Part shown: positions 6,531 to 30,370 of the stretch, in pieces
How the letters are laid out: the number at the start of each line of letters is the position of its first letter
Numbering within the stretch: position 1 is the stretch's first letter
Assembly (NCBI GenBank): GCA_963707635.1
Contig: OY970173.1
Span: 832,001 to 896,000 of the forward strand
Length of the DNA stretch: 64,000 nucleotides
Reading direction: 5' to 3'
Source of the DNA: Candidatus Latescibacterota bacterium
Lineage (GTDB): Bacteria > Krumholzibacteriota > Krumholzibacteriia > WVZY01 > JAKEHA01
Notes under the pieces: generated by a model
What the model saw: only the letters and a program-made list of their open reading frames with translations
Database searches by the model: none
What the model was told of the DNA's origin: nothing
Translations under genes and position numbers: made by a program

Positions 6531-6623
6531 ATGAGTATCCTGACCATCATCGGGGGCGTGATCGCCGCGCTTCTGCTTGGCTATCTCCTGGTCGCCCTGC
6601 TCTTCCCGGAGAAGCTGTCATGA
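6531..6623 (+). CDS. kdpF: K+-transporting ATPase subunit F
   Basis: 30 aa ending '[14 protein letters not shown]'; ATGA overlap with kdpA. Confidence 0.9.
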   Translation: MSILTIIGGVIAALLLGYLLVALLFPEKLS

Positions 6624-8368
6624 CGCAGAACGCCGTTCTTCAGTGCGTGCTCTACCTGGTTCTGCTGGTAGGGCTCGGTATTCCACTCGGCGCCTACATG
6701 GCGCGCGTGTACGAGGGACAATCGAAGCTGGGCAACCGCCTGTTCGGTCCGCTCGAGCGGCTCGTCTACCGGGTGGCGCGCATACCGGCCGAAGTCGACA
6801 TGAGCTGGAAGCGCTACGCGATCGCCGCGCTGGCGTTCAACTTCCTCGGCGCCGCTCTCGTGTACGCTATTCAGCGCTTGCAAGGCGTGCTGCCGCTCAA
6901 TCCAGCGCACCTGCCGGCCGTCGTTCCGCCGGTGGCCTTCAACACGGCGGTCAGTTTCGCCACCAATACCAACTGGCAGGCCTATGGCGGCGAGACCACG
7001 CTAAGCTATCTGACGCAGATGGCGGCTCTCACAGTGCAGAACTTTGTGTCGGCAGCCACGGGGATGGCGGTGCTGGTGGCGCTCATCCGCGGTTTCGTCC
7101 GTCGCTCGGCCAATGGGGTGGGCTCGTTCTGGATCGACCTCACGCGCAGCACGGTCTACATCCTGCTCCCGCTTTCCATCATTCTGGCGCTGCTGCTGGT
7201 GTCGCAGGGCGTGGTGCAGACGTTCGCTCCTTATAAGGAGGTGGCGTTGCTCGATCCGCTGGCCACCAGCGATTCCACGACGGTCACCACCCAAACGCTG
7301 GCACTCGGACCCGCGGCTTCGCAGATCGCCATCAAACAGCTCGGCACCAACGGCGGCGGTTTCTACAACGTCAACTCCGCGCATCCGTTCGAGAACGCCA
7401 CGCCGTTCTCGAACCTGCTCGAGCTGCTCGCGATCCTGATCATTCCGGCGGGGCTGTGTTTCACGTTCGGCTCGATGGTGCGCGATCGCCGCCAGGGCTG
7501 GGCCGTTCTCGCGGCCATGTTGATCATCTTTGTGCCCCTCCTCTATGTCGCCGTTCATTCCGAGCAGACGCCCAATCCGATTCTCACCCACCTGGGTGCG
7601 GATGCGACGCCGGGCCTCCTGCAATCGGGCGGCAACATGGAGGGGAAGGAAGTCCGTTTCGGGATCACCAACAGCGCGCTCTGGGCCACCGCGACCACGT
7701 CCGCGTCCAACGGTTCCGTCAACTCGATGCACGACAGCTTCATGCCGCTCGGCGGCATGGTGCCGATGTGGCTCATGCAGCTCGGTGAAGTCGTATTCGG
7801 CGGCGTCGGCTCCGGCCTGTACGGAATGCTGATGTTCGCAATCGTCGCGGTGTTCATTGCGGGGCTCATGGTGGGACGCACGCCGGAGTATCTCGGCAAG
7901 AAGATCGAAGCCTACGAGATGAAGATGGCGTCGCTCGCCGTGCTGGTGCCACTATTCGCGGTGCTGGTGGGGACGGCGCTCGCGTGTATCGTGCCCGAGA
8001 CGCAACGGGCCATCGCCAACCCGGGCATCCACGGCTTCAGCGAAATCCTCTACGCCTTCTCGTCGTCGAGCAACAACAACGGCTCCGCCTTCGCCGGCCT
8101 CACCGCGAGCGGAATGTTCTACGCCACCGCGCAGGGCATCAGCATGCTGATGGGCCGTTACTGGATCCTGGTGCCGGTGCTCGCCATCGCGGGCTCGCTG
8201 GCGCGCAAGAAGTACGTACCGCCCAGCGCAGGGACGCTGCCGACGCACACGCCGCTCTTCGTGTTCCTGCTGGTGGGAGTGGTCATTATCATCGGTGCGC
8301 TCACGTTCTTCCCGGCGCTCGCGCTCGGTCCCATCGTCGAGCACCTGCAGCTCGCGCATACCCTGTAA
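6620..8368 (+). CDS. kdpA: K+-transporting ATPase subunit A
   Basis: TNTNWQ, GTNGGG, SNGS and NNGSAF selectivity-filter motifs. Confidence 0.98.
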
Positions 8369-8378
8369 GGAGAGCTTT

Positions 8379-10454
8379 ATGTCGACCCATGCCCATTCAC
8401 GGCCGCTGTTCGAACGCGCGATCGTCGCACGCGCGGCCGTTGACTCGTTTCGAAAACTGAACCCGCGCCGCATGGTCCGCAACCCGGTCATGTTCGTCGT
8501 GATGGTGGGGAGCGCCTTCACCACCGTGCTGTTCGTGCACGCCGCGGCGAGCGGAAAGGGCGAAGCCGCCCCCGGCTTCATTCTCGCCATTTCGCTCTGG
8601 CTCTGGTTCACCGTGCTCTTCGCTAACTTCGCCGAAGCCATGGCCGAGGGCCGCGGCAAGGCCCAGGCCGACGCGCTGCGCAAGGCCCGGAAGGCCGTCA
8701 TTGCCAAACGGCTCGAGGCCCCCCGCATGAACGCGACGCGCAACGTGGTCGCGTCCGCCGATCTCCGTCAGGGCGACTTCGTGCTGGTCGAGGCGGGCGA
8801 CCAGATTCCCGGCGACGGTGAAGTGATCGAAGGCGTGGCGTCGGTCGACGAGAGCGCCATTACGGGCGAGAGCGCGCCCGTCATCCGCGAGACCGGGGAA
8901 GACCGCAGCGCCGTCACCGGCGGGACGCGGGTGCTTTCCGACTGGCTCGTCATTCGTATCACCGCCAATCCGGGCGAGACCTTTCTCGACCGGATGATTG
9001 CGATGGTCGAGGGCGCGAAGCGCCAGAAGACGCCCAACGAGATCGCCCTCGACATCCTGCTCGCCAAGCTGACGATCGTATTCCTGCTGGCGACGGTTAC
9101 GCTCCTGCCGTTTTCGATCTACGCGGTGACGAGCTCGGGTCAGGGCTCACCGGTTACGTTGACGGTGCTGGTCGCCCTGCTCGTGTGCCTGATCCCGACC
9201 ACCATCGGCGCGTTGCTTTCGGCGATTGGCATCGCCGGGATGGATCGCATGATCCAGGCGAACGTCATCGCCACCTCCGGGCGCGCGGTGGAAGCGGCGG
9301 GGGACGTCGACGTGCTTCTCCTCGACAAGACCGGGACCATTACCCTGGGCAACCGCCAGGCGTCGGCATTTCTCCCTGCGCCCGGCGTGAGCGAGTCGGA
9401 GCTGGCCGACGCGGCGCAGATTGCCTCGCTCGCGGACGAGACCCCGGAAGGGCGCAGCATCGTGGTGCTCGCCAAGGAGAAGTTCAACCTGCGCGCGCGC
9501 GACGTGCACGCGCTTGGCGCCACCTTCATTCCCTTCAGCGCGCACACGCGCATGAGCGGCGTCGACGTGGACGGCCGGCAGATTCGAAAGGGGGCGGCCG
9601 AAGCCATCGCCCGCTACCTGGACGAGCGCGGCGCGCGCATCCCGGCCGAGGTGCTGCAGACCGTCGAGCAGATCTCGCACCAGGGTGCGACGCCGCTGGT
9701 GGTGGTCGAGAACAACCGCGCGCTCGGCGTCGTGCAGCTCAAGGACATCGTCAAGGGGGGAATCAAGGAGCGCTTCGCCGAGATTCGCCGGGTCGGCATC
9801 CGCACCGTGATGATCACCGGCGACAACCCGCTGACCGCGGCCGCCATCGCGGCCGAGGCTGGCGTCGACGACTTCCTCGCCGAGGCCAACCCGGAGAAGA
9901 AGCTGACGATGATCCGCGACTACCAGGCGAAAGGGCACCTGGTTGCGATGACGGGTGACGGCACCAACGACGCGCCTGCGCTCGCGCAGGCGGATGTCGC
10001 GGTGGCGATGAACACCGGCACCCAGGCGGCCAAGGAAGCCGGGAACATGGTGGACCTCGATTCGAACCCCACCAAGCTCCTCCAGATCGTCGAGATCGGG
10101 AAGCAGATGCTCATGACGCGCGGTTCGCTCACGACTTTCAGCATCGCGAACGACGTCGCGAAGTACTTCGCCATCATCCCGGCCGCGTTCGCGGGGACCT
10201 ATCCAGTGCTCGGGGCGCTCAACATCATGCATCTTCATTCGCCGACGTCGGCGGTGCTGTCCGCGGTGATCTTCAACGCGCTCATCATCATCGCGCTCAT
10301 CCCGCTGGCGCTGCGCGGGATCAAGTACCGCCCGGCGCCGGCCTCCGCGCTGCTGCGCCGGAATCTGATCGTCTACGGCCTCGGCGGCGTGCTGATGCCG
10401 TTCCCGTTCATCAAGCTCATCGACGTCATCCTGGTCGCGATGGGCGTCAAGTAG
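8379..10454 (+). CDS. kdpB: K+-transporting ATPase subunit B
   Basis: [31 protein letters not shown] before ATG 8379. Confidence 0.98.
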
Positions 10455-10470
10455 CGCCGAAAGGAAACCC

Positions 10471-11046
10471 ATGTCGCTCGTGCGTCCTGCTCTCATGCTC
10501 CTGCTGGTGTTTACCGTGCTCCTCGGGATCGTGTACCCCGCGGTCATGACGGGTGTCTCCCGCGTGCTCTTCCCCGCGCGGGCGTCCGGGAGCCTCGTGC
10601 GCGAGGGGGACCGCGTGGTTGGCTCCTCGCTGATCGGTCAGCCGTTCGACGACCCCCGCTACTTCTGGGGGCGCCGGTCGGCGACGGGACCGGTGCCGTA
10701 CAACGCGGCTGCCTCCACGGGCTCGAACCAGGGCCCGTCCAACCCCGCCCTGCACGACGCCGTCGCCGCCCGCATCGACGCGCTTCGCGCCGCGGACCCC
10801 GGGAACGACGCACTCGTGCCGATCGACCTGGTCACCGCCTCGGGAAGCGGGCTCGACCCGCACATCTCGCCCGCGGCGGCGTATTACCAGGTGGCGCGCG
10901 TGGCGCGCGCGCGTGGTCTGTCCGAGCTACGGGTTCGCGCGCTGGTTGACGCGGCCGTCGAGGGTCGCACGCTGGGCATGATCGGCGAACCGCGCGTGAA
11001 TGTGCTGCGCCTCAACCTGGCGCTCGATCACGGCAGCGGTTCGTGA
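10471..11046 (+). CDS. kdpC: K+-transporting ATPase subunit C
   Basis: [30 protein letters not shown]. Confidence 0.98.
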
Positions 11047-11077
11047 CGGACGCGGGTACTGGTGATAGACTGACCGC

Positions 11078-13806
11078 GTGAGCCCGGAAACCCGACGCCC
11101 CGATCCCGACGCATTGCTCGAGCGGGTGACCGCGGAAGCCGAACGCGAGCACCGCGCCAAGCTGCGGATTTTTTTTGGCTTTGCCCCTGGGGTCGGCAAG
11201 ACCTACCGCATGCTCCAGGTGGCGCGCGATCTCGTGCGCCAAAAGGTCGACGTCGTGGTCGGCGCGGTCGAGACGCACGGCCGCTATGACACGGGCGGGC
11301 TCCTGCTCGGGCTCGAGATCCTGCCGCGACGCAAGGTCGCCTATCGGGGTCGCGAGATGGAAGAGTTCGACCTCGACGCCGCGCTGGCGCGGCGGCCGCG
11401 CGTGTTGATCCTCGACGAACTCGCCCACACCAACGTGCCCGGCTCGCGCCACACCAAGCGCTGGCAGGATGCCATGGAGCTGCTCGACGCCGGGATCGAC
11501 GTCTACACGACTCTCAACGTCCAGCACGTCGAAAGCCTCAACGACGTGGTCGCGCAGATCACGCGCGTCCAGGTGCGCGAGACCGTCCCCGATTCCGTTC
11601 TCGAACGCGCCGACGCGATCGAATTGGTCGACATCTCCCCCGAAGAACTCCTGGCTCGCCTGCGTGAAGGCAAGGTCTACCTCCCGGATCAGGCGGCCCG
11701 CGCTGCCACGCACTTCTTCCAGCGCGGCAACCTGCTTGCGCTGCGCGAACTCGCGCTGCGGCATACCGCCGAGCAGGTGGAAGCGGACGTCATGGAGTAC
11801 CGCGAGCTGGAGGGAGTGGAAGGGGCGTGGCCGACGTCGGAACGCATCCTGGTCGGCATCGGCGCCTCGCCGACGTCGGGGCGGATCTTGCGCGCGGCCC
11901 GGCGCATGGCGGCGGGGCTGCGAGCGCCATGGGTGGCCGCGTTCGTGGAGCCGCTCGGCATCGCGCCTCTCGGCGAGGGCGACCGAAAGCGTCTCGAAGA
12001 ACACCTGCGTCTCGCGGAATCGCTGGGTGCATCGGTCGTGCAGCTCACGGGCCCGAGCGTGAGCGAAGCGATCCTGGACTACGCGCGCAAACACAACGTC
12101 ACCCGACTCATCATCGGTAAACCGAGGCACACCCGGCTGCGCGACCGTTTCCGGGGTTCGCTCGTGGACCACATCGTCGCGGGCAGCGGCGACATCGACG
12201 TTCACGTCATCTCGGGCGACCCGGAGGGGCCGGCCGAAGTACGCGAGGAGACGGTGCGCCGGGGCCTCGCCGCACCGTGGAGCGCCTACGTGTGGTCGGC
12301 GGCATTCATCGCAGGGACCACCGGACTCGCCGCCGCGGTGCGAGCGGTCTATCCCGTGCCCGATCTCGAGATGATGTATCTCGTCGCCGTCATGCTCACG
12401 GCGTTGCGCTTCGGGCGCGGACCGTCGTTGCTCGCCGCCGCACTCGCCGTGGCCGCCTACGACTTCTTCTTCGTTCCGCCGCGCTTCACGTTTGCGGTGT
12501 CGGATTGGCGTTACCTGCTGACGTTCGGGATGATGTTCGGCGTCGGCTGGCTCATCAGCACGCTGACGATCCGCATTCGCCGGCAGGAGCACGACGCGGT
12601 TGCCCGGGAAGAGCGGACCCGGGCACTGTTCGAGCTGGGTCGCGAGCTCGCGAACGCGCGGACGGTGGCCGCTGCCGCCGACGTGGCGGCCCGGAACGCG
12701 GCCCAGGCATTCGACGCGGCCGCCACCGTGCTCATGCGCGGTCCGGGAGAGGAGCTCGCGCCACGCGCATCGTTTCCGCCCGACGCGAATCTCGACGCCG
12801 GGGACCTCGGAGTCGCGAAGTGGGTATTCGAGCACGGGCGCGTCGCCGGCCAAGGAACCGACACGCTGCCGGGCGCCCGGGCCATTTGCGTCCCCTTGCG
12901 CACGACCGGCGACCCGGTCGGGGTGCTGGCACTCCTGCCGCGGCGCGCGGTTTCGCTGGACGCCGACCAGCGCACGCGCCTCGACGCGCTGTGCACGCAG
13001 GTGGCGTTCGCGCTGGAGCGGGCGCAGCTCGCGCGCGAAGCGGAAGCATCCGCACTGCGGGCGAAGACGGAAGAGATGCGCAGCTCGCTCTTGAGCGCCG
13101 TGTCGCACGACCTGCGCACGCCACTGGCCGCAATCACCGGCGCGGTGTCGACGCTGCGCGACGAGTCCGTGCGGCTGCCCGAGGCGCAACGAGACGAACT
13201 GCTCGCCGCCATTCACGAGGAAGCCGAGCGGCTCGAGCGGCTGGTCGCCAATCTGCTCGACATGACGCGCGTCGAATCGGGCAGCCTGCACGTGCGGCAC
13301 GAGTGGGTGCCGCTCGAAGAACTGGTGGGCGCGGCGTTGACCCGGCTGGAGCGCGTGCTCGACGACCGGCCGGTGCGCGTGTCCCTGGCCGCGGGGCTGC
13401 CGCTGCTGTCCGTGGACCCGTTGTTGTTCGAACAGGTTCTCGTCAACCTGCTGGAGAACGCGGCCAAATACACGCCCGCGGGGTCCGCGATCGACATCGA
13501 GGGCCGCGCCGAGGGGGACGGGGTGGTGGTCGAGGTCAAGGATCGCGGCCCGGGAATCGCCGCCGGAGACGAGCAACGCGTGTTCGAGAAATTCTATCGC
13601 GGGGACAAACCGGTGGCGGTGGGAGCGGGGCTCGGGCTGGCCATCTGCAAGGGAATCGTGGAAGCGCATGGCGGCGCGATCCGCGTCGAGAGCCGGCCCG
13701 GCGAGGGGGCCACGTTTCGCGTGACGCTTCCCCGGGTCGGAGAGGCGCCGTCGGTGGACGCGAATGATGCCGGCTTGCCGCCCGGTGCCGACCGGGGTGA
13801 CGCGGC

Positions 13807-13810
<4 letters not shown>
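11078..13810 (+). CDS. kdpD: Sensor histidine kinase KdpD
   Basis: GVGKTY, DELAH, Usp-like domain, 4 TMs, GAF, SHDLRTPL H-box. Confidence 0.97.
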
Positions 13811-14502
<692 letters not shown>

Positions 14503-14511
14503 GACTTTCTC

Positions 14512-16140
14512 ATGCGACTCATGAAAAAAGAGCGCCGCCAGGAGCACACGACAGAACACGGACGCGAACAGGTCACCCTGATGCGGCCCGAAGGTCCCGA
14601 CCGGGGTCGCGGGCTGTCCTCGGGATTCCCGGCCGATCTCTTCGAACAGGCCCGCGGGCGTCTCCGGCTCCTGGCGGGTTTCTTCTTCTGCGCCTTCCTG
14701 TTCGACGTACTGGTCTTTGTCAGCGTGATGGCGGTCACCCGGTCGCTGCCGCGCGAGAGTTTCCGTACGATCCCCATCCAGGTCGCCGCCCTGGTTGCCG
14801 CGGTGATGTCAGCCGCCGTGTGGTGGGCGGCGAAGAGTCCGCGCATTTCCGCGTCCCGCATCCACGCGGTGGGCCTGGTCTATGAAGTGGTGGTGTGCTC
14901 CATCGCGGCCACGTCGACCTACCTGCAGTACTACCACGATACCGGGCTGGTCCCGTTGCTGACGTGGGTCCCCGCGATCGTCATCATGTTTCCCCTGATC
15001 ATGCCGGGGCCGCCGCGGCGAATGCTCGCGGCCGCGATCATTTCGGGCGCGACGGGACCGCTGGCGCTGTTCCTGCTCGACATGACGGGCAGAGTCGAAG
15101 CCGGTGACGGGTACGTTCCGTCCGTCGTCAGCTCGACGTTTGCGGTGATATTCGCGTACATGGGTGCGCGCGTCATCTACTCACTCGGGCGCGAGGTGGC
15201 CCGGGCGCGCGCGCTGGGGAGTTATCAACTCGAAGTGCGCCTGGGAGAGGGCGGCATGGGGGAGGTCTGGCGCGCGACCCATCGCCTGCTGGCCCGCCCG
15301 GCGGCGATCAAGCTCATTCGGCCGTCGCTGGTGGGAAGCGCGAGCACCGGGGTTTCGGACGAGGCGCGGCGGCGCTTCGAGCGGGAAGCGCAGGTCATCG
15401 CGAGTCTCCGCTCACCGCACACGGTCGACCTGTTCGACTTCGGAGTCGCGGACGACGGCTCCTTCTACTACGCGATGGAGCTGCTCGACGGACTCGACGC
15501 CGATGTGCTCGTGCGCCGCTTTGGTCCCGTCCCAGCGGAGCGCGCGGTGCACCTGCTCCGCCAGGTGTGCCACTCGCTCTCCGAGGCGGAATCCCGCGGC
15601 CTGGTCCATCGGGACATCAAGCCGTCGAATGTATTCGTGTGCCGCTACGGCGAGGACCACGATTTCGTTAAGGTGCTGGATTTCGGCATCGTGAAGTCGC
15701 GACACGATGCGGCCGGCCTGGGACCGGCGCTGACTCGTGAGACCGTGATCCACGGCACCCCCGCGTTCATGGCGCCCGAACAGGCGCTGGGCGGTGACAG
15801 TATCGACGGGCGCGCCGACATCTATGCGGTCGGCTGCGTGGCCTACTGGCTCCTGACCGGACAGCTCGTGTTCACCGCCGACACGCCGTCGGCGTTGCTT
15901 TTGCAGCATATCCAGGCGGTGCCGACCCCGCCTTCGGCACGCGCCGAATTGCCGATCCCCTCGTCCCTGGATGCGATTGTGCTGGCGTGTTTGGCGAAGA
16001 GCCCGGCCGATCGTCCCCGGTCGGCGAAGGAATTGTCGAGCCGGCTGGCAGGTGTCGAAGGGGCGGGCGTGTGGACCGAGGACCGCTGCCGGGAATGGTG
16101 GGAGAAGCACCAGCCGGCCCCGCGCAGCGCGTCGAACTGA
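14512..16140 (+). CDS. Multi-TM Ser/Thr protein kinase
   Basis: About 6 N-terminal TM helices; GEGGMGEV, AIK, HRDIKPSN, DFG, GTPAFMAPE. Confidence 0.93.
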   Translation: MRLMKKERRQEHTTEHGREQVTLMRPEGPDRGRGLSSGFPADLFEQARGRLRLLAGFFFCAFLFDVLVFVSVMAVTRSLPRESFRTIPIQVAALVAAVMSAAVWWAAKSPRISASRIHAVGLVYEVVVCSIAATSTYLQYYHDTGLVPLLTWVPAIVIMFPLIMPGPPRRMLAAAIISGATGPLALFLLDMTGRVEAGDGYVPSVVSSTFAVIFAYMGARVIYSLGREVARARALGSYQLEVRLGEGGMGEVWRATHRLLARPAAIKLIRPSLVGSASTGVSDEARRRFEREAQVIASLRSPHTVDLFDFGVADDGSFYYAMELLDGLDADVLVRRFGPVPAERAVHLLRQVCHSLSEAESRGLVHRDIKPSNVFVCRYGEDHDFVKVLDFGIVKSRHDAAGLGPALTRETVIHGTPAFMAPEQALGGDSIDGRADIYAVGCVAYWLLTGQLVFTADTPSALLLQHIQAVPTPPSARAELPIPSSLDAIVLACLAKSPADRPRSAKELSSRLAGVEGAGVWTEDRCREWWEKHQPAPRSASN

Positions 16141-18432
16141 TCAGCCTTCCTCGACGCGCTTGCGGACTTCGGCCAGGTTCAGCTCGATCGACTGGCTCGA
16201 ACGCATCAGATCCTCCAGGACGACTTCACGCGGGCGCGTGCCCGGGGTCTTCCCCCGCGTGTCGTCGAGCAACGGACTCAAGCTGTTCCATATCTCGCGT
16301 GGAAGAACGCTCTCCAGATACTCCAGCCCGGTTCCGCGCAGCACGACGTCGGTCGTGAGCAGTCCCTTGAACGCAATCAGCAACGGGGCGCGCGGGATCA
16401 CGAGCGACAGGATGGTGAACACGTGCTCCATCCGGCGGCTGGCACGCCCGTGCAGCGATTCGTCGATCAGCGCGGGCTCGTCGTTCGCCGGCTCGTCGAT
16501 AAGCTGCTGATCCTCCCAGAGTGACTTGTCGACACGCGTCTCTTTCAGCACCGCCGCGTATACCGTCGCCGCGTCGACCGGCAGCGACGGGAGTCGTTCG
16601 TGGATTCGGGCCAGCGCCCGCGCCGTCTGGTAGCGCACCTCGAACCGGCTGTCGGCGAGCGCGGCTACGAGCCCGTCGTAGGCGCGTGAGGTCGTGCAGG
16701 TGCCGAGGATGCGGGGGACACGCCGGCGGATGGCGAAGTCCTCGTTGGGATCGAGCAGACGGTCGATGAGTTGACCCGTCACCGCCGGCGCGGATTTGGC
16801 CAGCGCGCGCGACGCCCAGCCGGTCACCTCGTCCCAGGCCAGGAGCGAGATCACCTGGGCGGCGAGCGTCGGCGTCAGGGCCCGGGTCTGGCGCAGCTCC
16901 GCGTGCACGCGCCGGGCGTCGCCGGAACGAAGCGCGATCAGGGAAGCAAGCTCCGGGTCCGCCACGGGCGCGAGGGGCTGCGTCGGCGCCGTTTTCAACT
17001 CGGAGATGGCCCCGTCGTCCGCGGATGGGTCCGACGACGAGCCCGGGGAGTCGCCGCGGAGCTCGCCCAGTCGCGCGCCGTCGATCGACATCGACAGGTC
17101 GATGCCGGTGAACGACTCCATCATCATCGTGCGCACGCCGACGGGCTCGTCTCCCTTGATGTCGAGCACGCTGGCCCGCTTGATCAGGCTCTCCTCGAGC
17201 GCACGGATGTATCCCCGGCGCAGCGCTCGCACCACCACGAAGCCCAGCGCCGAAATCAGCACCGCCAGGCCCATGAGGACGTGGCTGGCGATCGCCACCG
17301 GCAGGAGTATGACCGCGCGGATGACCGCGCCGCCGACGACATCCCCCATGCGATCCGCGCCCACGTCGACGATGGTCTTGGTGCTGCGTTTTTCTTCGGG
17401 GGCGACCGGGGTGAAGAGCAGTTCGTACCCGGACCGAAACAACGAACTCTGAATGACCGCTTCGAGGGCGCGCAGAATCCCCAGGCCCGTAAGCCCCATC
17501 ACCGGGAGCGTGACCAGCCCGCCGACGGCCACGATCGCCGGGCGGACGGCCAGCGTGTTTGCAATCCCGGCCCCCTCCAGGAGACGTCGCGTCATGCCGG
17601 CCTGCACGGCGAGCGAGACGACGGACACGGCCGTGTAGAACACCGCAAAGAACCGAACCAGGTCCGCGCCGTTCGCGAAGCTCTGCGCGGCGCGCGCCTT
17701 GAAGAGATAATCGATGAGAGTGGCGGCCACGTTTCCCAGCAGAACGATGAGCGCGAGATTGCGCAGGTAGCCGACGCGCATCAGCACGCGGAAGCCGGAT
17801 TCAGCCGCGCGCTCGTGTTCATGCCTGGCGCGGCCGTCCGGCGGCGACTTCGGGTCCGCGCCGGCGGGCGGCAAGCGGACGAGAAGCAGCCCGCAGACCA
17901 CGTTGAGGCCGGCGATGATCGGCAGCACCCACAGCAGACCGGCGTAAGCACCCACCCGTTCCGCGAGCAGGCCTCCGAAGAGCCCGCCCACCGTGGCCCA
18001 TCCGACGATCCGTCCGATACTGCGTTTGGCCGTCCGGGGGTCGAAGTGTTCGTTGAGGATCGACCAGAATCCCGAAATCAGAATCGAGCCGATCACCGCG
18101 ACGTGGAGGTATACGAGGACCGAGGCCGCCTTCGGGCTGCGCGTGGCGAGAAACCACTCGGCGACGAGCAGGACGCCGCTGGCCACGAAGAACGGCGGCA
18201 TCACGCGGTGCGGTCCGAGCGAGGTCATGGCCCGCGCGGTGAGCAGCACGGCGCCGATCGACAACAGCGCCGACGCGATTAGCACCAGCGGCAGTGCGGA
18301 TACTTCGAAATTGGTCAGGAACAGAGCGTCGCGCGTGGCCTTGGCCGCCACCTGCGTCGCGATCATCGCGAACGCGCAGGCCGATGCGGTGGCGACCGAC
18401 GCAGCGCCGGCCCGCCGGCCGGGGCTAGCCAT
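16141..18432 (-). CDS. Npt1/Npt2 (TLC/NTT)-like nucleotide transporter domain fused to HEAT-like repeats
   Basis: 'KATRDALFL', 'FWSILNEHFDPRTAKR', 'LIDYLFK' and 'KTIVD' in a ~12-TM N-half; helical repeats 'LADSRFEVRYQTARAL' in the C-half. Confidence 0.7.
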   Translation of the reverse strand: MASPGRRAGAASVATASACAFAMIATQVAAKATRDALFLTNFEVSALPLVLIASALLSIGAVLLTARAMTSLGPHRVMPPFFVASGVLLVAEWFLATRSPKAASVLVYLHVAVIGSILISGFWSILNEHFDPRTAKRSIGRIVGWATVGGLFGGLLAERVGAYAGLLWVLPIIAGLNVVCGLLLVRLPPAGADPKSPPDGRARHEHERAAESGFRVLMRVGYLRNLALIVLLGNVAATLIDYLFKARAAQSFANGADLVRFFAVFYTAVSVVSLAVQAGMTRRLLEGAGIANTLAVRPAIVAVGGLVTLPVMGLTGLGILRALEAVIQSSLFRSGYELLFTPVAPEEKRSTKTIVDVGADRMGDVVGGAVIRAVILLPVAIASHVLMGLAVLISALGFVVVRALRRGYIRALEESLIKRASVLDIKGDEPVGVRTMMMESFTGIDLSMSIDGARLGELRGDSPGSSSDPSADDGAISELKTAPTQPLAPVADPELASLIALRSGDARRVHAELRQTRALTPTLAAQVISLLAWDEVTGWASRALAKSAPAVTGQLIDRLLDPNEDFAIRRRVPRILGTCTTSRAYDGLVAALADSRFEVRYQTARALARIHERLPSLPVDAATVYAAVLKETRVDKSLWEDQQLIDEPANDEPALIDESLHGRASRRMEHVFTILSLVIPRAPLLIAFKGLLTTDVVLRGTGLEYLESVLPREIWNSLSPLLDDTRGKTPGTRPREVVLEDLMRSSQSIELNLAEVRKRVEEG

Positions 18433-20071
18433 TCACGACCGTAGGCGCGCCCGTGTCCAGCCTGTGACCGAGGGGCGCCGCGTGGAGGTGGGGGAGGTGC
18501 ATTCGCCACCATTGCTCGGCACGCTGCTGCGTCCAGGCGGGAAGCGTGGCGGCGAGCTCCGAGAGCATTTCGCCGAGCTCCTCCGCGGAGCCCGGCCGGT
18601 CGTCCGGATCCTTCTCCAGACAGGCGAGCACGATCTCCTCCAGCCGCGGCGGCACCTCGATCTCGGTACGCGAAGAAACCGTGGGGGGCTTCTCCTTCAC
18701 GTGCTGGATGAGAATCGACATGGGAGTGTTGCCGGCGAACACCAGCTGCCCGGTCAGCAGCCAGTAGGCGACGCAGCCGAGTGCGTAGATGTCGGCGCGA
18801 CCGTCCACCGGCGCATCCCCGGTCACCATCTCCGGCGCCATGAAGCCCGGGGTTCCGCTGGTGACGCCGGCGCCCGTCAGCTGGGTGATCGTGTCGCCCG
18901 GGTCCTTGACGCTCTTGACCAGGCCGAAGTCGAGCACCTTGATGAAGTCGAAATCGCGGCCGCGGCGGCAGGTGAACATGTTGGCGGGTTTGATGTCCCG
19001 GTGTATCAGGCCGCGGTCGTGGGCGTCGGCGAGAGAATCGCACGCGGCGCGCAGGAAGTGGACCGCCCGCTCCGCGGGTATCGGTCCGGACTCCTGGATC
19101 AGCGACTTGAGGTCGCGACCCTCGAGAAACTCCATTACGTAGTAGAAGACTCCATCCTCGCCGATGCCGAAATCGTAGAGCATGATGGAATGTTGCGACG
19201 TGAGCATCGCCGTCGCCTGCGCCTCGCGCTCGAAACGCCGCAGCAGCGTCCGGGCGGCGGTCCCGTCCCCGGGGGTGCCCAGGGACTCGGGCCGGATCAG
19301 TTTTACCGCCGCCGGGCGGGCGAGCATCCGGTGTTTCGCCCGCCATACTTCGCCCATGCCGCCCGATCCGATCTTGTCGGTGAGCTGATAGCTGCCGAGG
19401 CGCCGGGCCTTGGAAACATCCCGGGCCAGGCGAAACACCCGATACGCAATGGCGTACGCGATGCCGGCGCAGATCAGGACCGGCAGCGCGAGGCGAACCA
19501 TCGCGATCCACGGGGAGCCCTCGAAATCGGCCGGAACACCGTGGACAGCCAGCGAGAGGATGGCGACGGCCGGCACGGTGGCGAATGCCAGCAGGGAGCC
19601 GATGAGCATCTGCCTGGGCGCGAGCGTGACGATGCTCGGATACGCCACCAGCCAGACTCCCACCCAGTTGACGGACTCGATCTCGAACTTCGAGACGCTC
19701 TCCCATCCCCACGACTGGACGGCGATGCCGAGCGCGGACACCACCAGGTAAAACATCGACATGCCCGCGAAGACGCAGGCTTCGCACTTCGTCCTGACGC
19801 ATCGGTAAACGACGACCAGCGAGTAGGTGATCGCGATCAGGGAGGTGACGGTGTCGAACGCGGGGAGAAAAAGGAAGTGACCGGCGTCGGCTATCCAGGT
19901 GATCCAGTCGGCGACGTAGCCGAGAAAGAAAACCGCCGCATAGATCGTCGCGGCAGCGGCGAGCCCGTGAAAGGCGCTCTGCTGCGTCTGGGAATCCAGG
20001 TCGGCGAAATTCGACGGATCGCTTGGACTGCTCGGCTGACTTTCAGCCCGTATGTTGAATTGTGCGGCCAC
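18425..20071 (-). CDS. Multi-TM Ser/Thr protein kinase, paralog of 14512..16140
   Basis: GSGGMGEV, HRDIKPAN, DFG, GTPGFMAPE; GGGAGG RBS before GTG 20071. Confidence 0.92.
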   Translation of the reverse strand: MAAQFNIRAESQPSSPSDPSNFADLDSQTQQSAFHGLAAAATIYAAVFFLGYVADWITWIADAGHFLFLPAFDTVTSLIAITYSLVVVYRCVRTKCEACVFAGMSMFYLVVSALGIAVQSWGWESVSKFEIESVNWVGVWLVAYPSIVTLAPRQMLIGSLLAFATVPAVAILSLAVHGVPADFEGSPWIAMVRLALPVLICAGIAYAIAYRVFRLARDVSKARRLGSYQLTDKIGSGGMGEVWRAKHRMLARPAAVKLIRPESLGTPGDGTAARTLLRRFEREAQATAMLTSQHSIMLYDFGIGEDGVFYYVMEFLEGRDLKSLIQESGPIPAERAVHFLRAACDSLADAHDRGLIHRDIKPANMFTCRRGRDFDFIKVLDFGLVKSVKDPGDTITQLTGAGVTSGTPGFMAPEMVTGDAPVDGRADIYALGCVAYWLLTGQLVFAGNTPMSILIQHVKEKPPTVSSRTEIEVPPRLEEIVLACLEKDPDDRPGSAEELGEMLSELAATLPAWTQQRAEQWWRMHLPHLHAAPLGHRLDTGAPTVVNG

Positions 20072-20195
20072 GAGCCTCCCGGTGTGCGCCGGCGCGGCGT
20101 TGGCTCCAACCCCGCGCCCGGGCAGCGGTACGCGCAAGGTTATCACGGGGCGGCGAACAGGACAACGGGGTGGTGGGATCCCGGTTTTCGGCCGG

Positions 20196-22779
20196 CTAGA
20201 ACGAGAGACCCGCGTGGATGTAGACCCCGGTGCCTTCCTCGCTCGACGCGATGGAAACGCTCACCGTGTTCGCCGCGTCGAGCAGCGCAAACCAGAACCC
20301 GCCGCCGGCCGCGCTGTGCCACTGATTGGACGATTCTCCCGTGAAGTAGACCCGTCCGGTGTCGCCCAGCGCAAACACGCCCAGACTCCCGGGTACGAAG
20401 ATGTAGACGCGGGCGATCGGGATACGAAGCTCCGCGCTTCCATACAACGAGCCGTCCCCGGCGAAGCGCTGTTGCGGGAATCCTCGCAGCGTGGCACCCC
20501 CGCCCACGTAGGCGGCCTCATCGTAGGGGTAGGCTCCCCACACCCGTTTGCCACCCGCCCGCAGGGCGAGGGTCGGTGTGGTGGGAATCGGAAGCGGCTG
20601 GTACAGGGCGCCCTCGCCATGAACCTCGCCGAAGGTGGTTTCGACGGCTCCGACCGGTGGGTACACGTTACCGTCGACGGCGAAACGGACGCCGCGCGTG
20701 GGAGCCACATCCGAGTCGCGCGTGTCGATGGATAGTCCCGCGCCCGCGCCGGCCTGGAAGAAGTCCTCCGCGCCGTACGGGGGCGCGGTCGTGATGTAGC
20801 GGTCGGGCTCGAGGTCGGTCTTTTTGTACTGCGCGTTGACCTGCAGGGTCGCGGTCCAATGCTGGCCGACCGGCAGGAGCAGCGACGGCTCAACGACGTA
20901 CTGGGTGTGCTTCACCTTGTAGAAATCTTCGTCCTCGCTGGCCTCGGTCTCGTTTCCGTATCCATAGAAGTGCAGAAAGTCCAGCCCCGACGCCCGCACA
21001 TAGAGGCCTGTCGCGACGCGCGTGTTCTCGCGACGGAATTCGCCCCGGTAGTCCGCACCGAAGGATCCGGCCCGGGTGGCGTAGCCGACGCGGATGGTTT
21101 GTTTGCTCGCGTACGGGTCCTTGCGGAATCCGTATCCGAAGGATTGCAAACTGGCGAGGAACAGCACACCCAGGTCGCTGTTGCCGCCGATCCACGGAAT
21201 GAAGATGTTTCTCCGCCCCCAGTCGCGCGGCGGGATCCAGGGGGCCTTCTCGCGTTTCGGAGGCGTGTACGGGCGGGTGTCCAGTTTCGTTCCGGATCCG
21301 CGCAGCACGTCGTTGGTGCCACTCGCGTCCGAGACGAGAAGTCCGGTCCCGGCGCTATCGTCGAAGGTGTCATCGCCACCGCCGCCGATCACGCGCACGG
21401 TGATCTTGCCCGGGCGGCCGGTGGCGGTCAGGCTGTCGTTGCCGCCGCCGAGGTAGATTCGAATCTCGTCGGTTTCGTCCGGATGAAACACGCGATGCAC
21501 GTACGGAGTGCCGGCCGCCGCGACGGACACCTCGACATCGCCATTCTCGCGATGGCCGACCGTCACGACCTCGTCCTGGTCCGTGGCCCGAATGTCGACC
21601 TTGCGCGCGAGGAAGCGATAGAAGCGATCCGCCTCGGCCGCGAGCTGGTCGCGCCGATGGCGCAGCGCGGCTTCCATCCCGGCACCCTCCAGGGCGCGGT
21701 ACTCGGCGGGAATGCGCGCCACCGCCTGCGCGATCACGGCGTCGGTGATGCGCGCCTGCAGACCCGTCGCGACCTCGTCCCAGACCGGTTTCTCCAGCTC
21801 GACCAGGATCCGGCGGTCGCCGTCGCGGCCGTTCCACGTGAGTCCTTCGATCCCGGGATAGTCCTCGCCGAAGCTCACGAACTGGGGTGCGCGCTGACGC
21901 CCCGCGACGACCACCAACCCTTCGAAGCGAACGAAGGCCTGATCGCGGTCCTCGGGAATCGGGCGCCATCGTTCGTCAGCCGGCAGCTTCGCCCACCGCC
22001 ACTGCCCGCGATGACGATCCCAGTCGCCGACGAGGATGTCGACCAGCCGGGCGGTGAGAAACGCGCGCGAATCGGGGCGCGTGGCCGGACTCTCGTCCAT
22101 CCGTTTCCACATCTCCGCGCCGTCCACGATCTCGGTGGCGCCGGCGAATCCGGGCCGCGGGTATTCCTCGAACGTTCCGAGCACCCCGGCGAACACGGAT
22201 TGAAACTCGCCCAGCAGCGAGTCGTCCGGCATCACCACCAGCATCGGATCCGCGTGCAGCACGCCGGCGGCTTCCAGCAGCGGTGGCACGGCCACGGCGC
22301 CCGCCGGGGAAGCTGGACGCGATCTGATCCTGCAACAGTTTGTCGACGAACGTGCCGTGTAGCTCCGGCGGCAGTATCTCGGTGGGATCCTTGTCGAGGC
22401 CGCGGAAGGTGTAGTCGCGGCCGTCGGCGCCCTTCATGGCGAGACCGAGTGTCTGCTGACCGCCCACGCGCCTCACCGGCTGCAGTCCGCCCGCGAAGCG
22501 GTGCAGGTCCAGTTCCGGGATTTCGACCGGCGTCGTCCACAGGCGGCGATAATCGCTTCCCAGCAGGAACCGGTGCAAGTCCCCCGCGTGGTAGTGCTCG
22601 CCCGCGACCACGGTGCGAACGCGCGGGGCGATGGCCGCCGTGCTGTCGGGCGCGCCGCCCGCGTCGGCCGATCCAGCGCTGCCGGCAACGGTGAGCGCCA
22701 GGCCATTCGCGAGCAGCCCGGCCACTGCGCCGGCGCGCTTTCGCCGCGCGGCGCTACTCCTGCGGAACAGGATCGACAC
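20196..22779 (-). CDS. Omp85 (BamA/TamA-like) beta-barrel protein with an N-terminal atypical kinase-like domain; frameshift near 22300
   Basis: Signal peptide; 'GGQQT', 'GDWDRH', 'IPEDRDQAF'; C-terminal 'LRGF..QRFAGD' loop-6-like motif and terminal F. Removing one G joins ORFs 21976..22779 and 20196..22295. Confidence 0.8.
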
Positions 22780-24112
22780 GTTGCACCTCCATCAGCGCCC
22801 GGTGACGCCGGCCAATGCCGATGACGATGAGCAGCCATACCAGAATGAACGCCATGTTGACGATGGCGAAGTCCCGGGGTTGCAGCGCGAGCAGGGTTCC
22901 CAGGAATACCAGACCCGCGGACGAGAGGTCGCCGGCGCGCACGAACAGCGTGTCGATCGCGGCCTTGGCCTTGTACTTCGCTTCTCTAGCCGTCGGCAGG
23001 AAGAGTGCCTGACGCGCGGTGTTGTTGAGCGAATAGTCGAGTGAATTCTCGCTGATCTTCGCCATCCGGATGAGCGCGAGCACCGGCACGAACGCGAGTA
23101 TCCCGTACGCGCCCAGCGCGACCACCGGCAGCACATACAGCGCCACCCGCACGCCGAAGCGGCGCAGGAAACGCCCGACCAGGAAGATCTGGATGACGGC
23201 CGTGATCGTGGCCACCCAGGTGAAGTAGTCCGCGTAGAACCTGCCGATGAATTGCTTCACGAAATCGTCGGCGGCCACGCCTTCCATCCTGCCGGCGGCG
23301 GCGAATCGCACCGCCTCGCCCGACACCACCCGGCCGAGGATGTATTCTCCGTTGGTGTTCACGAAGTTGAGCAGCAGCAGCAGCATGGCGATCAAGAACA
23401 GATAGCGGTCCCGCGCCACCAACGCGAATCCACCGCGGCGATCGATCATGGGTGCGGTGGCGGCAGGGTCGTGTGCGACTCGTTGCGTGCGGCGTTGGAC
23501 GATCAGGATGAGCAGCAGATAGCCACCGAGAATGGCGGCGGCAACGAGCATGAGTTGATAGACGTGGAGGCGCCCGATCAGCGCCTTGGAGATGAACCCG
23601 CCGGTGGCGGCGCCCAGGGTCTGGCCGAATCCCAGGATGGCGAAGAGCCGGCGGCCCTGTTCCGGCGTGTAGACGTCGTTGGCGAACGACCAGAACTGGG
23701 CGATGATCATGAGGTTGAAAATCCCCACCCACACGAAGAAGGCGACGCCCAGGCCGGGCGTTCTCGCGACCGCGAGGAAGTAGAAAACCAGGAGGTTGGA
23801 GATGAAGAACAACGTGACGATGCTGATCAGGCGGATGCGATTGACCCGATTCGCGATCGCACTGTAGGCGGGCACCAGAAAGAGGAGTAGGACCGCCTGC
23901 GCCGCCGAGGTATAGCTCTTCAGTTCCGCTCCGCCCCCCGAGAGAATGAGCGGCTCGCGCACGACCTTGAGCACGTAGTACGCGGTGAGCAGCAGGAACA
24001 CCGCAAGCATGAGCAGAACCGCGTTCGTTCCTTCGCCGGCCCTGAGGAACGCGAACGGCCGCAGCATGCTGTCGAGAATTCCTCGATGATTCCGGGGAGC
24101 GCTCTCGCTCAT
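22754..24112 (-). CDS. Npt1/Npt2 family (TLC/AAA) nucleotide transporter
   Basis: 'YYVLKVVRE', 'QFWSFANDVY..EQGRRLF', 'ENSLDYS', 'KYKAKAAIDT..R.GD'; ~12 TMs. Confidence 0.85.
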   Translation of the reverse strand: MSESAPRNHRGILDSMLRPFAFLRAGEGTNAVLLMLAVFLLLTAYYVLKVVREPLILSGGGAELKSYTSAAQAVLLLFLVPAYSAIANRVNRIRLISIVTLFFISNLLVFYFLAVARTPGLGVAFFVWVGIFNLMIIAQFWSFANDVYTPEQGRRLFAILGFGQTLGAATGGFISKALIGRLHVYQLMLVAAAILGGYLLLILIVQRRTQRVAHDPAATAPMIDRRGGFALVARDRYLFLIAMLLLLLNFVNTNGEYILGRVVSGEAVRFAAAGRMEGVAADDFVKQFIGRFYADYFTWVATITAVIQIFLVGRFLRRFGVRVALYVLPVVALGAYGILAFVPVLALIRMAKISENSLDYSLNNTARQALFLPTAREAKYKAKAAIDTLFVRAGDLSSAGLVFLGTLLALQPRDFAIVNMAFILVWLLIVIGIGRRHRALMEVQRVDPVPQE

Positions 24113-24282: not shown

Positions 24283-24930
24283 ATGAATCGAATCATCCCA
24301 ATACTACTGATCGCAATGATGGCGACGGTGGGCTGCTCCAAGAAGGCCCTGATCGCCCAGAAGGACGCGGAGATCGCCAGTCTGCAGAGCGACGTGACGG
24401 AGCTAAAGGGGCAGGTCAGTGAACTCCAGGCCAGTCTCGACCAGCAGCAGCAGATGAACGCCCAGTTGAACACCGACCTGGCCGACCTGCGCGAAGAGAA
24501 GCGCATCCTGATCGAGGAGAAAGAAGGCCTCACGCACATCACCCTGGACGGGGCAGCGACGTTCGGCACGGCGCAGGCCGACCTGACCGACGAAGCCAAA
24601 GAAGTCCTGGACCGGGTCTGGAATGTGCTGGCGGACTACCCGGACCGCCGCATCCTGATCGAAGGGCACACGGACAGCCGTCAGATCGCGATGACGTACC
24701 GCGAGAAGTTCGCGTCCAACTGGGAGCTGTCATCCGCCCGCGCGCATTCGGTGCTCCACTATCTGCAGTACCAGCACCACGCGGATCCGAACCGCCTGGC
24801 CGCGGTCGGCTACGCCGCGAGCGAGCCGGTGGCCGACGACTCGACGCCGGAAGGACGGGCCCAGAACCGGCGCGTCGTGATCACGGTGGGCAGCGAAATG
24901 GACGTCGAGGCGAGGATTTCCAACCGGTAG
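24283..24930 (+). CDS. OmpA/MotB-type peptidoglycan-binding lipoprotein with coiled coil (copy 1)
   Basis: Lipobox 'TVGC'; EGHTD, NWELSSARA, RAQNRRV. Confidence 0.9.
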   Translation: MNRIIPILLIAMMATVGCSKKALIAQKDAEIASLQSDVTELKGQVSELQASLDQQQQMNAQLNTDLADLREEKRILIEEKEGLTHITLDGAATFGTAQADLTDEAKEVLDRVWNVLADYPDRRILIEGHTDSRQIAMTYREKFASNWELSSARAHSVLHYLQYQHHADPNRLAAVGYAASEPVADDSTPEGRAQNRRVVITVGSEMDVEARISNR

Positions 24931-29562: not shown

Positions 29563-29695
29563 CCGGTTTTTCCCCCGCCTCGGTCCCCTCGTGTAAGCGA
29601 GCGTACAGACTCCCGCCCGCCTGGACGCATTCTTACCTGTGCGAATCCTCGAACACTACACCTGCCCTCAAGGACCCAACCGCGGGAGGAACCAC

Positions 29696-30370
29696 ATGAA
29701 ACCCATAGGAATCGTGCTCGTGGCCGTGACGATGGTGATGGCAACGGGTTGCTCGAAGAAGGAGCTCATCGCCCAGAAGGACGCCGAAATTGCAGGACTG
29801 CGCGCGGATGTATCGCGCCTCGAGAGCGAAGCCGCCGAGCAGAAACGGGTGACGGACGACCTCAATACCCAGCTGGCGGACCTGCAGGAACAGAAGCGCG
29901 TGTGGGTGGAAGAAAAGGACGGCTTGACGTTCATCACCCTGGACGGATCGGCGACCTTCGCCACGGCCCAGGCCGACCTGACCACCGAAGGAACGGAGGT
30001 CCTCGACCGCGTCTGGAGCGTGCTCCAGAACTACCCCGACCGCCGCGTGCTGGTCGAGGGCCACACGGACAGCCGGCCCATCGCGCCGAGCTTTCGCTGG
30101 AAGTATGCGTCGAACTGGGAGCTATCGTCGGCGCGGGCCCACGCCGTGCTCCACTATCTGGAAGGCAAGTACGCCATCGAACCCACTCGTCTCGCAGCCG
30201 TCGGGTACGGCGAGAACGATCCCGTCGCCGACAACGAGAGCCCGGAGGGGCGCGCGCAGAACCGTCGCGTCGTCATCACCGTGGGGAGCAAGGCGTCGGT
30301 CGAGCAGCGCAAGTCGGAGGCACAGGTCAGCGCCGTCGGGGCGCCGGACCTCGAGCGGAGAAGCGACTAG
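29696..30370 (+). CDS. OmpA/MotB-type peptidoglycan-binding lipoprotein (copy 2)
   Basis: Lipobox 'ATGC'; clearly paralogous to 24283..24930; GGAGG RBS. Confidence 0.9.
   Translation: MKPIGIVLVAVTMVMATGCSKKELIAQKDAEIAGLRADVSRLESEAAEQKRVTDDLNTQLADLQEQKRVWVEEKDGLTFITLDGSATFATAQADLTTEGTEVLDRVWSVLQNYPDRRVLVEGHTDSRPIAPSFRWKYASNWELSSARAHAVLHYLEGKYAIEPTRLAAVGYGENDPVADNESPEGRAQNRRVVITVGSKASVEQRKSEAQVSAVGAPDLERRSD

Follow-up and report, generated by a model that had tools for sequence, protein, structure and literature searches.

The 64,000-nucleotide stretch analyzed here (hereafter the window; positions 832,001 to 896,000 of contig OY970173.1, assembly GCA_963707635.1 of a Candidatus Latescibacterota bacterium) carries on its minus strand a set of four genes encoding a nucleotide carrier of the NTT (TLC) family, a predicted kinase domain fused to an Omp85 outer membrane barrel (kinase-Omp85), a membrane Ser/Thr kinase (STK) and a second NTT carrier extended by putative HEAT repeats (NTT-HEAT). 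We consider this set a real and conserved envelope module, each part of which belongs to a known family, and whose combination is undescribed in the literature searched: no paper on the kinase-Omp85 fusion or on its link to NTTs was found, subscription papers being mostly outside the coverage of the search. As to the mechanism, we infer, tentatively and with somewhat less than even confidence, that the module runs a nucleotide-dependent phosphorylation in the periplasm, the ADP being taken back against cytoplasmic ATP.

The host genome, a single contig of 3.2 Mb with 96% completeness whose closest homologs carry the label Ca. Krumholzibacteria, contains only two TLC genes, i.e. those of NTT and NTT-HEAT, and a single copy of the kinase-barrel gene. 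The original prediction, made from the window sequence, had named five genes with two overlaps and a pair of abutting stops, and all of these are present where it placed them:

22754..24112, minus strand: NTT, single-domain NTT/TLC-family carrier of 452 aa (Pfam TLC 46.2 bits, cut-off 21)
22303..22779, minus strand: 5' part of kinase-Omp85, with a signal-peptide-like N-terminus and the predicted kinase N-lobe (82–89% identity to the N-termini of the intact homologs P0002–P0004)
22300..22306, minus strand: extra base splitting the kinase-Omp85 frame in the assembly, absent from 8 of 8 aligned congener orthologs
21609..22295, minus strand: predicted kinase C-lobe, with the catalytic loop DWDRHRGQW (22025–21999) and the metal-binding EDRD motif (21956–21939)
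21261..21608, minus strand: linker, all-beta in the model and not POTRA-like (DSSP of model m613363dcb18c, residues 370–477)
20196..21260, minus strand: predicted Omp85 barrel of 16 strands with an RGF loop-6 motif and Phe at the end (Pfam Omp85 E 2.5e-13)
18425..20146, minus strand: STK_B, membrane-anchored Hanks Ser/Thr kinase with 5–6 transmembrane segments (Pkinase E 6.9e-41)
16141..18432, minus strand: NTT-HEAT fusion of 763 aa (TLC 42.3 bits, cut-off 21; weak HEAT_2 match)
14512..16140, plus strand: STK_A, convergent paralog of STK_B and optional member

The kinase-Omp85 gene starts with GTG at 22779, 26 nt within the 3' end of the NTT gene and with GGAGG upstream, and its N-terminus aligns with that of the ortholog P0002 from residue 1. 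STK_B and NTT-HEAT overlap by 8 nt, and the end of STK_A at 16140 abuts the NTT-HEAT stop at 16141.

Conservation of the gene set

The order NTT, kinase-Omp85, membrane STK and NTT-HEAT was kept in 9 out of 14 congener genomes with a close ortholog, and in the remaining five, where contig ends cut the locus, the order agreed as far as the contigs reached. In Gemmatimonadota all four genes were found in shuffled order (loci L079, L111, L112, L114, L193, L195 and L197), and an NTT near kinase-Omp85 was found in Acidobacteriota and Anaeromyxobacter (L051, L052, L075, L078 and L085); both patterns appeared in a wider survey comprising the best 80 of 415 GTDB matches. Such a neighborhood check had been suggested in the original prediction, and NTT, kinase-Omp85 and membrane STK do recur together in several orders and phyla, far beyond chance. 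The convergent STK_A, which had been claimed as a twin part of the module, is indeed a paralog of STK_B, albeit an optional one, its ortholog adjoining the operon in 3 of the 9 complete congener loci. A DegP/HtrA protease gene recurs within the NTT-STK clusters (L108, L111, L112, L130, L137 and L174).

The neighbors of 117 distinct kinase domains, many of them on short contigs, included NTT-like genes in 31 cases, DUF4956 in 36, phosphoesterases in 48, SdiA-regulated propellers in 30 and polyphosphate kinases in 14; the kinase-barrel family as such is not tied to NTTs. The membrane STK was present in 17 out of 17 kinase-Omp85 loci with this type of NTT-HEAT, against 6 out of 86 loci without NTT. 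NTT and DUF4956 came together in 3 of the 31 NTT-type loci; repeated swapping of the two, considered because of this near-exclusivity, was rejected since the gene contexts follow clades of the kinase tree. An even draw of Gemmatimonadota gave the kinase domain in 27 of 101 genomes (a tally including the unpublished G118), and among 30 regions from 24 of those genomes NTT was present in 5, DUF4956 in 13 and both in none. Two congener loci (L029 and L030; genomes G015 and G012) represent a second kinase-Omp85 clade linked to DUF4956, SdiA and phosphoesterase genes, G012 having both types, and in six loci (L070, L071, L077, L090, L102 and L105) a CYTH-domain polyphosphate kinase fusion of ~1050 aa stands behind DUF4956 and kinase-Omp85. 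The 1427-aa Omp85-STK open reading frame of L024 appears to be an artefact of an indel.

A survey that took the carrier as its starting point gave, among its best 80 of 480 matches, 68 metagenome NTT-HEAT loci, 23 of them at least 8 kb long. The STK membrane domain was found in 15 of these 23, and 14 held either the fused kinase or an exported protein with kinase motifs (kinase B) beside a stand-alone Omp85. Among 12 loci with a close NTT from other genera of the class, Omp85 and exported kinase B were present in six and absent from six. The fused kinase and kinase B matched only weakly in profile comparison (probability 4.2%), so that the latter represents a separate family and two different putative kinase families travel with the same carrier, the kinase label of B coming from its motifs. 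Kinase B as a mere replacement of the fusion was rejected, both being present in 4 of 117 loci. In L079 and L114 a single cluster combines both carriers and two membrane STKs with the kinase-Omp85 fusion, a further Omp85 accompanied by kinase B, and a third exported protein of ~350 aa without Pfam match, which we take to be CotH-like.

The same surveys bear on whether the locus holds two units, i.e. a cytoplasm-facing signaling or sensing pair of STK and NTT-HEAT (the carrier maybe acting as a transceptor) and an envelope unit of NTT, exported kinase and Omp85. NTT-HEAT occurs with STK and without exported kinase in L135, L153 and L178, NTT occurs with Omp85 and kinase B and without STK in six loci, and NTT-HEAT differs from NTT in that neither the Lys155 position described below nor the sites one turn away from it carry a Lys; yet all four genes stay together through rearrangements in two phyla and overlap within the operon, and we regard a division of this kind as distinctly unlikely.

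The kinase-barrel protein

Structure models were made from intact homologs and not from the split window gene. In P0003, modeled at full length (pLDDT 90.4), a disordered N-terminus preceded an alpha/beta domain that extended to residue ~368 and was followed by an all-beta linker and a barrel of 16 strands, and the N-terminal domain of a congener folded alone by AF2 (pLDDT 93.5) adopted a bilobed kinase fold. The isolated kinase domain matched in Foldseek CtkA (E 4.5e-6), PI4KIIa (4.9e-5), CotH (2e-4) and HipA (4.5e-4), and the full-length model in VIA matched PI4KIIa (Z 15.2, rmsd 3.9, 248 aligned), CotH (Z 14.7, rmsd 4.1, 245 aligned) and CtkA (Z 12.9, rmsd 4.6, 221 aligned). The kinase label proposed originally is backed by these structure predictions, the N-terminal domain being a predicted atypical kinase fold of the CtkA, PI4K-II and CotH kind. 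Pfam matches to CotH (PF08757) or HipA (PF07804) were absent from the kinase domain of the window protein and of the congener, and the nearest named clusters in Atlas scored just 0.76. Residues R103, K107, D231, D254 and D256 (P0003 numbering; roles assigned by analogy) were present in 108 out of 108 homologs, in which the Gly loop, the R103/K107 pair and the DWDRHxxQW and EDRD motifs were invariant or nearly so; the N-lobe motifs of the window protein are the Gly loop GGQQT (22464–22450) and YTFRGLDK (22413–22390). The predicted barrel matched BamA/TamA (VIA Z ~25), with the loop-6 RG motif alignable to BamA. A POTRA/BamA role was rejected: the linker has strands only, and kinase-Omp85 scored 33 bits with TIGR03303 at a cut-off of 297.

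The N-termini of the 108 homologs resemble Sec signal peptides as judged by eye, and the N-terminal enzyme domain of the patatin-Omp85 protein PlpD is periplasmic (PMC11116518); with this precedent the kinase domain would lie on the periplasmic side. Its passage through the barrel or display by it, with action outside the cell on neighbors or external ATP, seems very improbable. In its favor, CtkA is the top structural match and has a comparable catalytic loop, secreted kinases resemble the domain, and the topology of such Omp85 fusions was left open by Heinz and Lithgow (2014; PMC4104836); against it, the model has no POTRA domain, the PlpD domain was proved periplasmic, and the steady partners are inner-membrane carriers and exported phosphoesterases.

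The kinase domain reaches far beyond the window, with 3301 representatives at 50% clustering (E up to 0.001). It was found in 120 out of 120 long homologs examined, with at least 330 bits and invariant catalytic residues. These long homologs are mostly annotated only with PF00149 and PF01103, and the named members are Bacteroidota; cultured genera with the unannotated kinase domain in such proteins are Larkinella, Pontibacter and Pedobacter. The PF00149 plus Omp85 architecture constitutes the "Metallo" Omp85 subfamily of Heinz and Lithgow (PMC4104836), and in the main text of that paper, in its available part, the word "kinase" does not occur. In the Metallo-Omp85 proteins P0389–P0507 (~1240 aa) the unannotated kinase-fold domain stands between phosphoesterase and barrel (median residues 413–758), placing a predicted kinase and a phosphatase within one chain. 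A Pfam scan detected no PF00149 domain in the window kinase-Omp85 or in the intact congener.

The two carriers

The original assignment of two proteins to the NTT type was confirmed: both scored above the Pfam TLC cut-off, and their profiles matched solved NTTs, i.e. 9j3n (E 3.4e-18) and 9j3j (E 4.7e-12) for NTT and 9j3j (E 2.9e-11) for NTT-HEAT. With TIGR00769 the two scored 34.3 and 40.5 bits, the cut-off being 387.2. The HEAT part of NTT-HEAT scored 22.8 bits with HEAT_2, below the cut-off of 27.7, and had many matches to HEAT-type alphaReps (best E 9.5e-20); no fused or adjacent cNMP-binding domain was present in the window.

Four residues of AtNTT1 named in PMC4256464, K155, E245, E385 and K527, correspond to K71, E161, E301 and K443 of chain 9j3j_A (AtNTT1 numbering being that of the chain plus 84, as counted from the printed alignments, with all four residues landing on the right letters). 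At the position of Lys527 NTT has Asp395, aligned gap-free with Lys443 of 9j3j_A, and Asp occupies this position in 120 of 120 homologs, the alignment excluding L045 and L078, which have a stop in their references; NTT-HEAT has Asp364 at the Lys527 motif position, with Asp in 66 of 67 sequences. In NTT, moreover, Gly130 stands at the Glu245 position and Ser69 at the Lys155 position, with an invariant Lys65 one turn upstream, and the Glu385 position falls on Glu256 in the gap-free and on Asn252 in the HMM alignment, Glu256 probably being the equivalent.

All ATP/ADP transporters of plastids and bacteria have Lys527, which serves to bind the gamma-phosphate or Pi (PMC2606016). To judge from the sequence, with Asp in place of this Lys, neither window carrier qualifies as a canonical ATP/ADP translocase. 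In the PamNTT1 mutant K446E, the Km for ATP-in/ADP-out exchange rose from 8.6 to 552 μM and the Vmax fell from 31.3 to 2.4, while for ADP-in/ATP-out the Km fell from 1401 to 29 μM and the Vmax from 5.5 to 1.6 (PMC2606016, Table 1), and Pi transport was abolished (PMC2606016); by our arithmetic the Vmax/Km preference for ATP-in versus ADP-in shifted from ~930:1 to ~1:13. An acidic residue at the Lys527 site thus turned the preference of that carrier toward ADP-in/ATP-out, which is also the direction required by the cycle proposed below. Asp at Lys527 would exclude a canonical ATP importer and favor ADP uptake, and is compatible with ATP export as well as with its absence. NTT had been suggested originally either to deliver ATP or to recover nucleotides; in view of the Asp, recovery of ADP, perhaps against ATP, is a better fit than mere ATP delivery.

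The membrane kinases

STK_A and STK_B are 43% identical over 490 aa, and each has five hydropathy peaks ahead of an intact Hanks kinase with the Gly loop, AxK, alphaC Glu, HRD, DFG and APE all present. The true start of STK_B is perhaps ~25 codons downstream of the annotated one. Its transmembrane domain matched no Pfam family, the only lead being MASE8-like. Gene linkage suggests that STK may control NTT-HEAT, and Ser/Thr440 in the NTT-HEAT linker, present in 61 of 67 sequences, is a candidate site of STK phosphorylation.

Proposed mechanism and its alternatives

In the proposed cycle the barrel would hold the kinase-fold domain at the periplasmic (inner) face of the outer membrane, where it would phosphorylate an envelope acceptor, either protein, lipid or small molecule. 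NTT would take the ADP of the kinase back in exchange for cytoplasmic ATP; since no phosphate would be carried, the exchange would be electrogenic, with the inside-negative membrane potential driving ATP out. The STK(s), together with NTT-HEAT, might tune the carrier flux via the HEAT domain or the linker. A broader version is doubtful as a whole. In it, loss of the phosphate-binding Lys would have turned an NTT class of free-living bacteria into reversed, electrogenic ADP-in/ATP-out exchangers that fuel periplasmic barrel-tethered kinases under Ser/Thr-kinase control, sister lineages would power the same kinase family by polyphosphate, and in Bacteroidota a single chain would unite kinase, phosphatase and barrel.

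Several observations weigh against the ATP-fueled cycle. On the side of transport, the authors of the K446E work caution that the ADP-in/ATP-out signal may represent ADP return and state that the plant Lys mutant also loses ATP export (PMC2606016), purified AtNTT1 K527E binds ADP and not ATP (PMC3306366), and two further canonical residues are displaced in NTT (those at Glu245 and Lys155). On the side of genomics, the clade-wise distribution of gene contexts in the kinase tree (FastTree) means that neighbor counts are not independent events and that Fisher values overstate the association; in 86 of the 117 kinase-Omp85 loci the flanking DNA examined has no NTT, and 9 of the 23 long NTT-HEAT loci show neither exported kinase. 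Finally, four of the six close NTTs without Omp85 and kinase B, all of the same subfamily (in L224, L225, L226 and L227), keep nearly the same pocket residues and have no exported kinase in the flanks examined.

These four NTTs stand directly behind CN-hydrolase and class III aminotransferase genes (families scanned in two of the four loci), which presumably resemble pyrimidine or polyamine catabolism. They would suit a salvage module without ATP export. In such a module, less-charged nucleotides (NDP, NMP, NAD or pyrimidine-type compounds) would enter from the periplasm through the carriers, and the kinase-fold domain would either act on scavenged compounds or draw on a different donor, for instance polyphosphate. 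Asp at Lys527 in both carrier families, the loss of ATP binding by K527E (PMC3306366) and the pairing of sister kinase clades with DUF4956, phosphoesterases and polyphosphate kinase point in the same direction, as may the NAD carrier PamNTT4, grouped by Major et al. with uncharacterized bacterial NTTs (PMC5381601). However, this genome (96% complete) has no DUF4956 match, polyphosphate kinase is present in 0 of 31 NTT-type loci, and the kinase keeps the Gly loop, the invariant beta3 basic residues and the Asp pair of its ATP-using relatives; salvage appears a serious but rather unlikely alternative to the ADP/ATP exchange.

Frame split of the kinase-Omp85 gene

The kinase-Omp85 gene has the place, start and fusion that had been predicted, but not as a single open frame: it is split by one extra base at ~22300 into an N part (22779–22303) and a C part (22295–20196). 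We consider the split quite probably an assembly error and the copy intact in vivo, whereas a recent pseudogene in this strain, which would concern the local copy only and be compatible with any other reading of the module, is unlikely. The frame is broken in the sole sequence available, and none of the sequencing runs searched contains half of the words of the stretch, nor was an RNA run listed as containing it. On the other hand, this is the only lesion in the gene, both halves are close to the intact P0002 (82 and 93% identity), the extra base sits in a short G/C run, and the single-contig assembly has further frame splits, in 4 of 24 Ser/Thr kinase loci and in a ParA gene. This assembly looks indel-prone, with split parA/kinase genes at 209939–210836, 656307–657087, 684446–684962, 801051–801882 and 1028694–1029135 (G000 C1). 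Among the listed homologs, 108 of 119 are at least 780 aa long. No near-identical contig across the frameshift site was present among the contigs compared; two X1 contigs without one base at 22306 came from related organisms only and were not counted as proof. A programmed frameshift was rejected, the extra base being common to no ortholog.

Genomic surroundings

STK_A starts 9 nt past the stop of kdpE, the last gene of a kdpABCDE-like run on the same strand (6620–14502; genes read from translations). In several congeners the operon stands beside parA and an ABC-F (ettA-like) gene instead, indicating that it has moved. On the other side, two paralogous coiled-coil OmpA/MotB-like lipoproteins are encoded at 24283–24930 and 29639–30370, with an extra sigma-70 factor, a Crp-family regulator and a two-component pair between them. 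A promoter scan of the locus gave no sites and the terminator matches fell within genes, making both uninformative.

Significance and comparison with known systems

The periplasm is taken to be ATP-free. No role is known for the NTTs of free-living bacteria (PMC5381601). The module makes both questions directly testable, providing a carrier and its candidate consumer and, in the carrier, a single diagnostic residue for which a published mutant predicts the direction of transport. The presence of the kinase domain in cultured Bacteroidota makes it accessible to study without culturing this organism. If the broader version outlined above is true, phosphorylation in the periplasm would be a widespread cycle that can be powered in either of two ways, by ATP via NTT or by polyphosphate.

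Kinases of the secretory pathway such as Fam20C depend on ATP imported into the lumen, and in mitochondria the ADP/ATP carrier exports ATP driven by the potential. The logic proposed here is alike, a kinase outside the cytosol being fed by an ADP/ATP exchanger, although the carriers are unrelated and the parallel is one of analogy only. Compared to AtNTT1, PamNTT1 and the chlamydial NTT1 (9j3j, 9j3n), the window carriers keep the helix-1 basic pair, the FW motif and the K...D....R.G motif, and differ in the Asp at Lys527, the free-living-type host and the exported-kinase context, the window NTT also in its Gly at Glu245 and Ser at Lys155. NTT and NTT-HEAT proteins of free-living bacteria are widespread and uncharacterized (Major, Embley and Williams, 2017; PMC5381601), and in the available text of that paper neither kinases nor Omp85 proteins are mentioned as partners. 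The NTT-HEAT(-cNBD) fusions described there share with the window protein an NTT domain followed by HEAT repeats, whereas the window subfamily has no cNMP-binding partner and overlaps a membrane STK instead.

The kinase-barrel protein resembles CtkA, PI4K type II, CotH, HipA and Fam20 in its predicted fold and D-R-H-type catalytic loop. It differs from them in that identity is only ~8–16%, Pfam gives no match, Gln replaces the Asn of the loop, and a barrel serves as tether. As in PlpD, an enzyme domain precedes an Omp85 barrel, this domain being of the predicted kinase fold rather than patatin and followed by an all-beta linker instead of POTRA. A further counterpart is the Metallo-Omp85 subfamily, with which kinase domain and barrel are common; the phosphoesterase domain, which is part of the Metallo-Omp85 chain and absent from the window protein, is encoded by a separate neighboring gene in 48 of the 117 loci.

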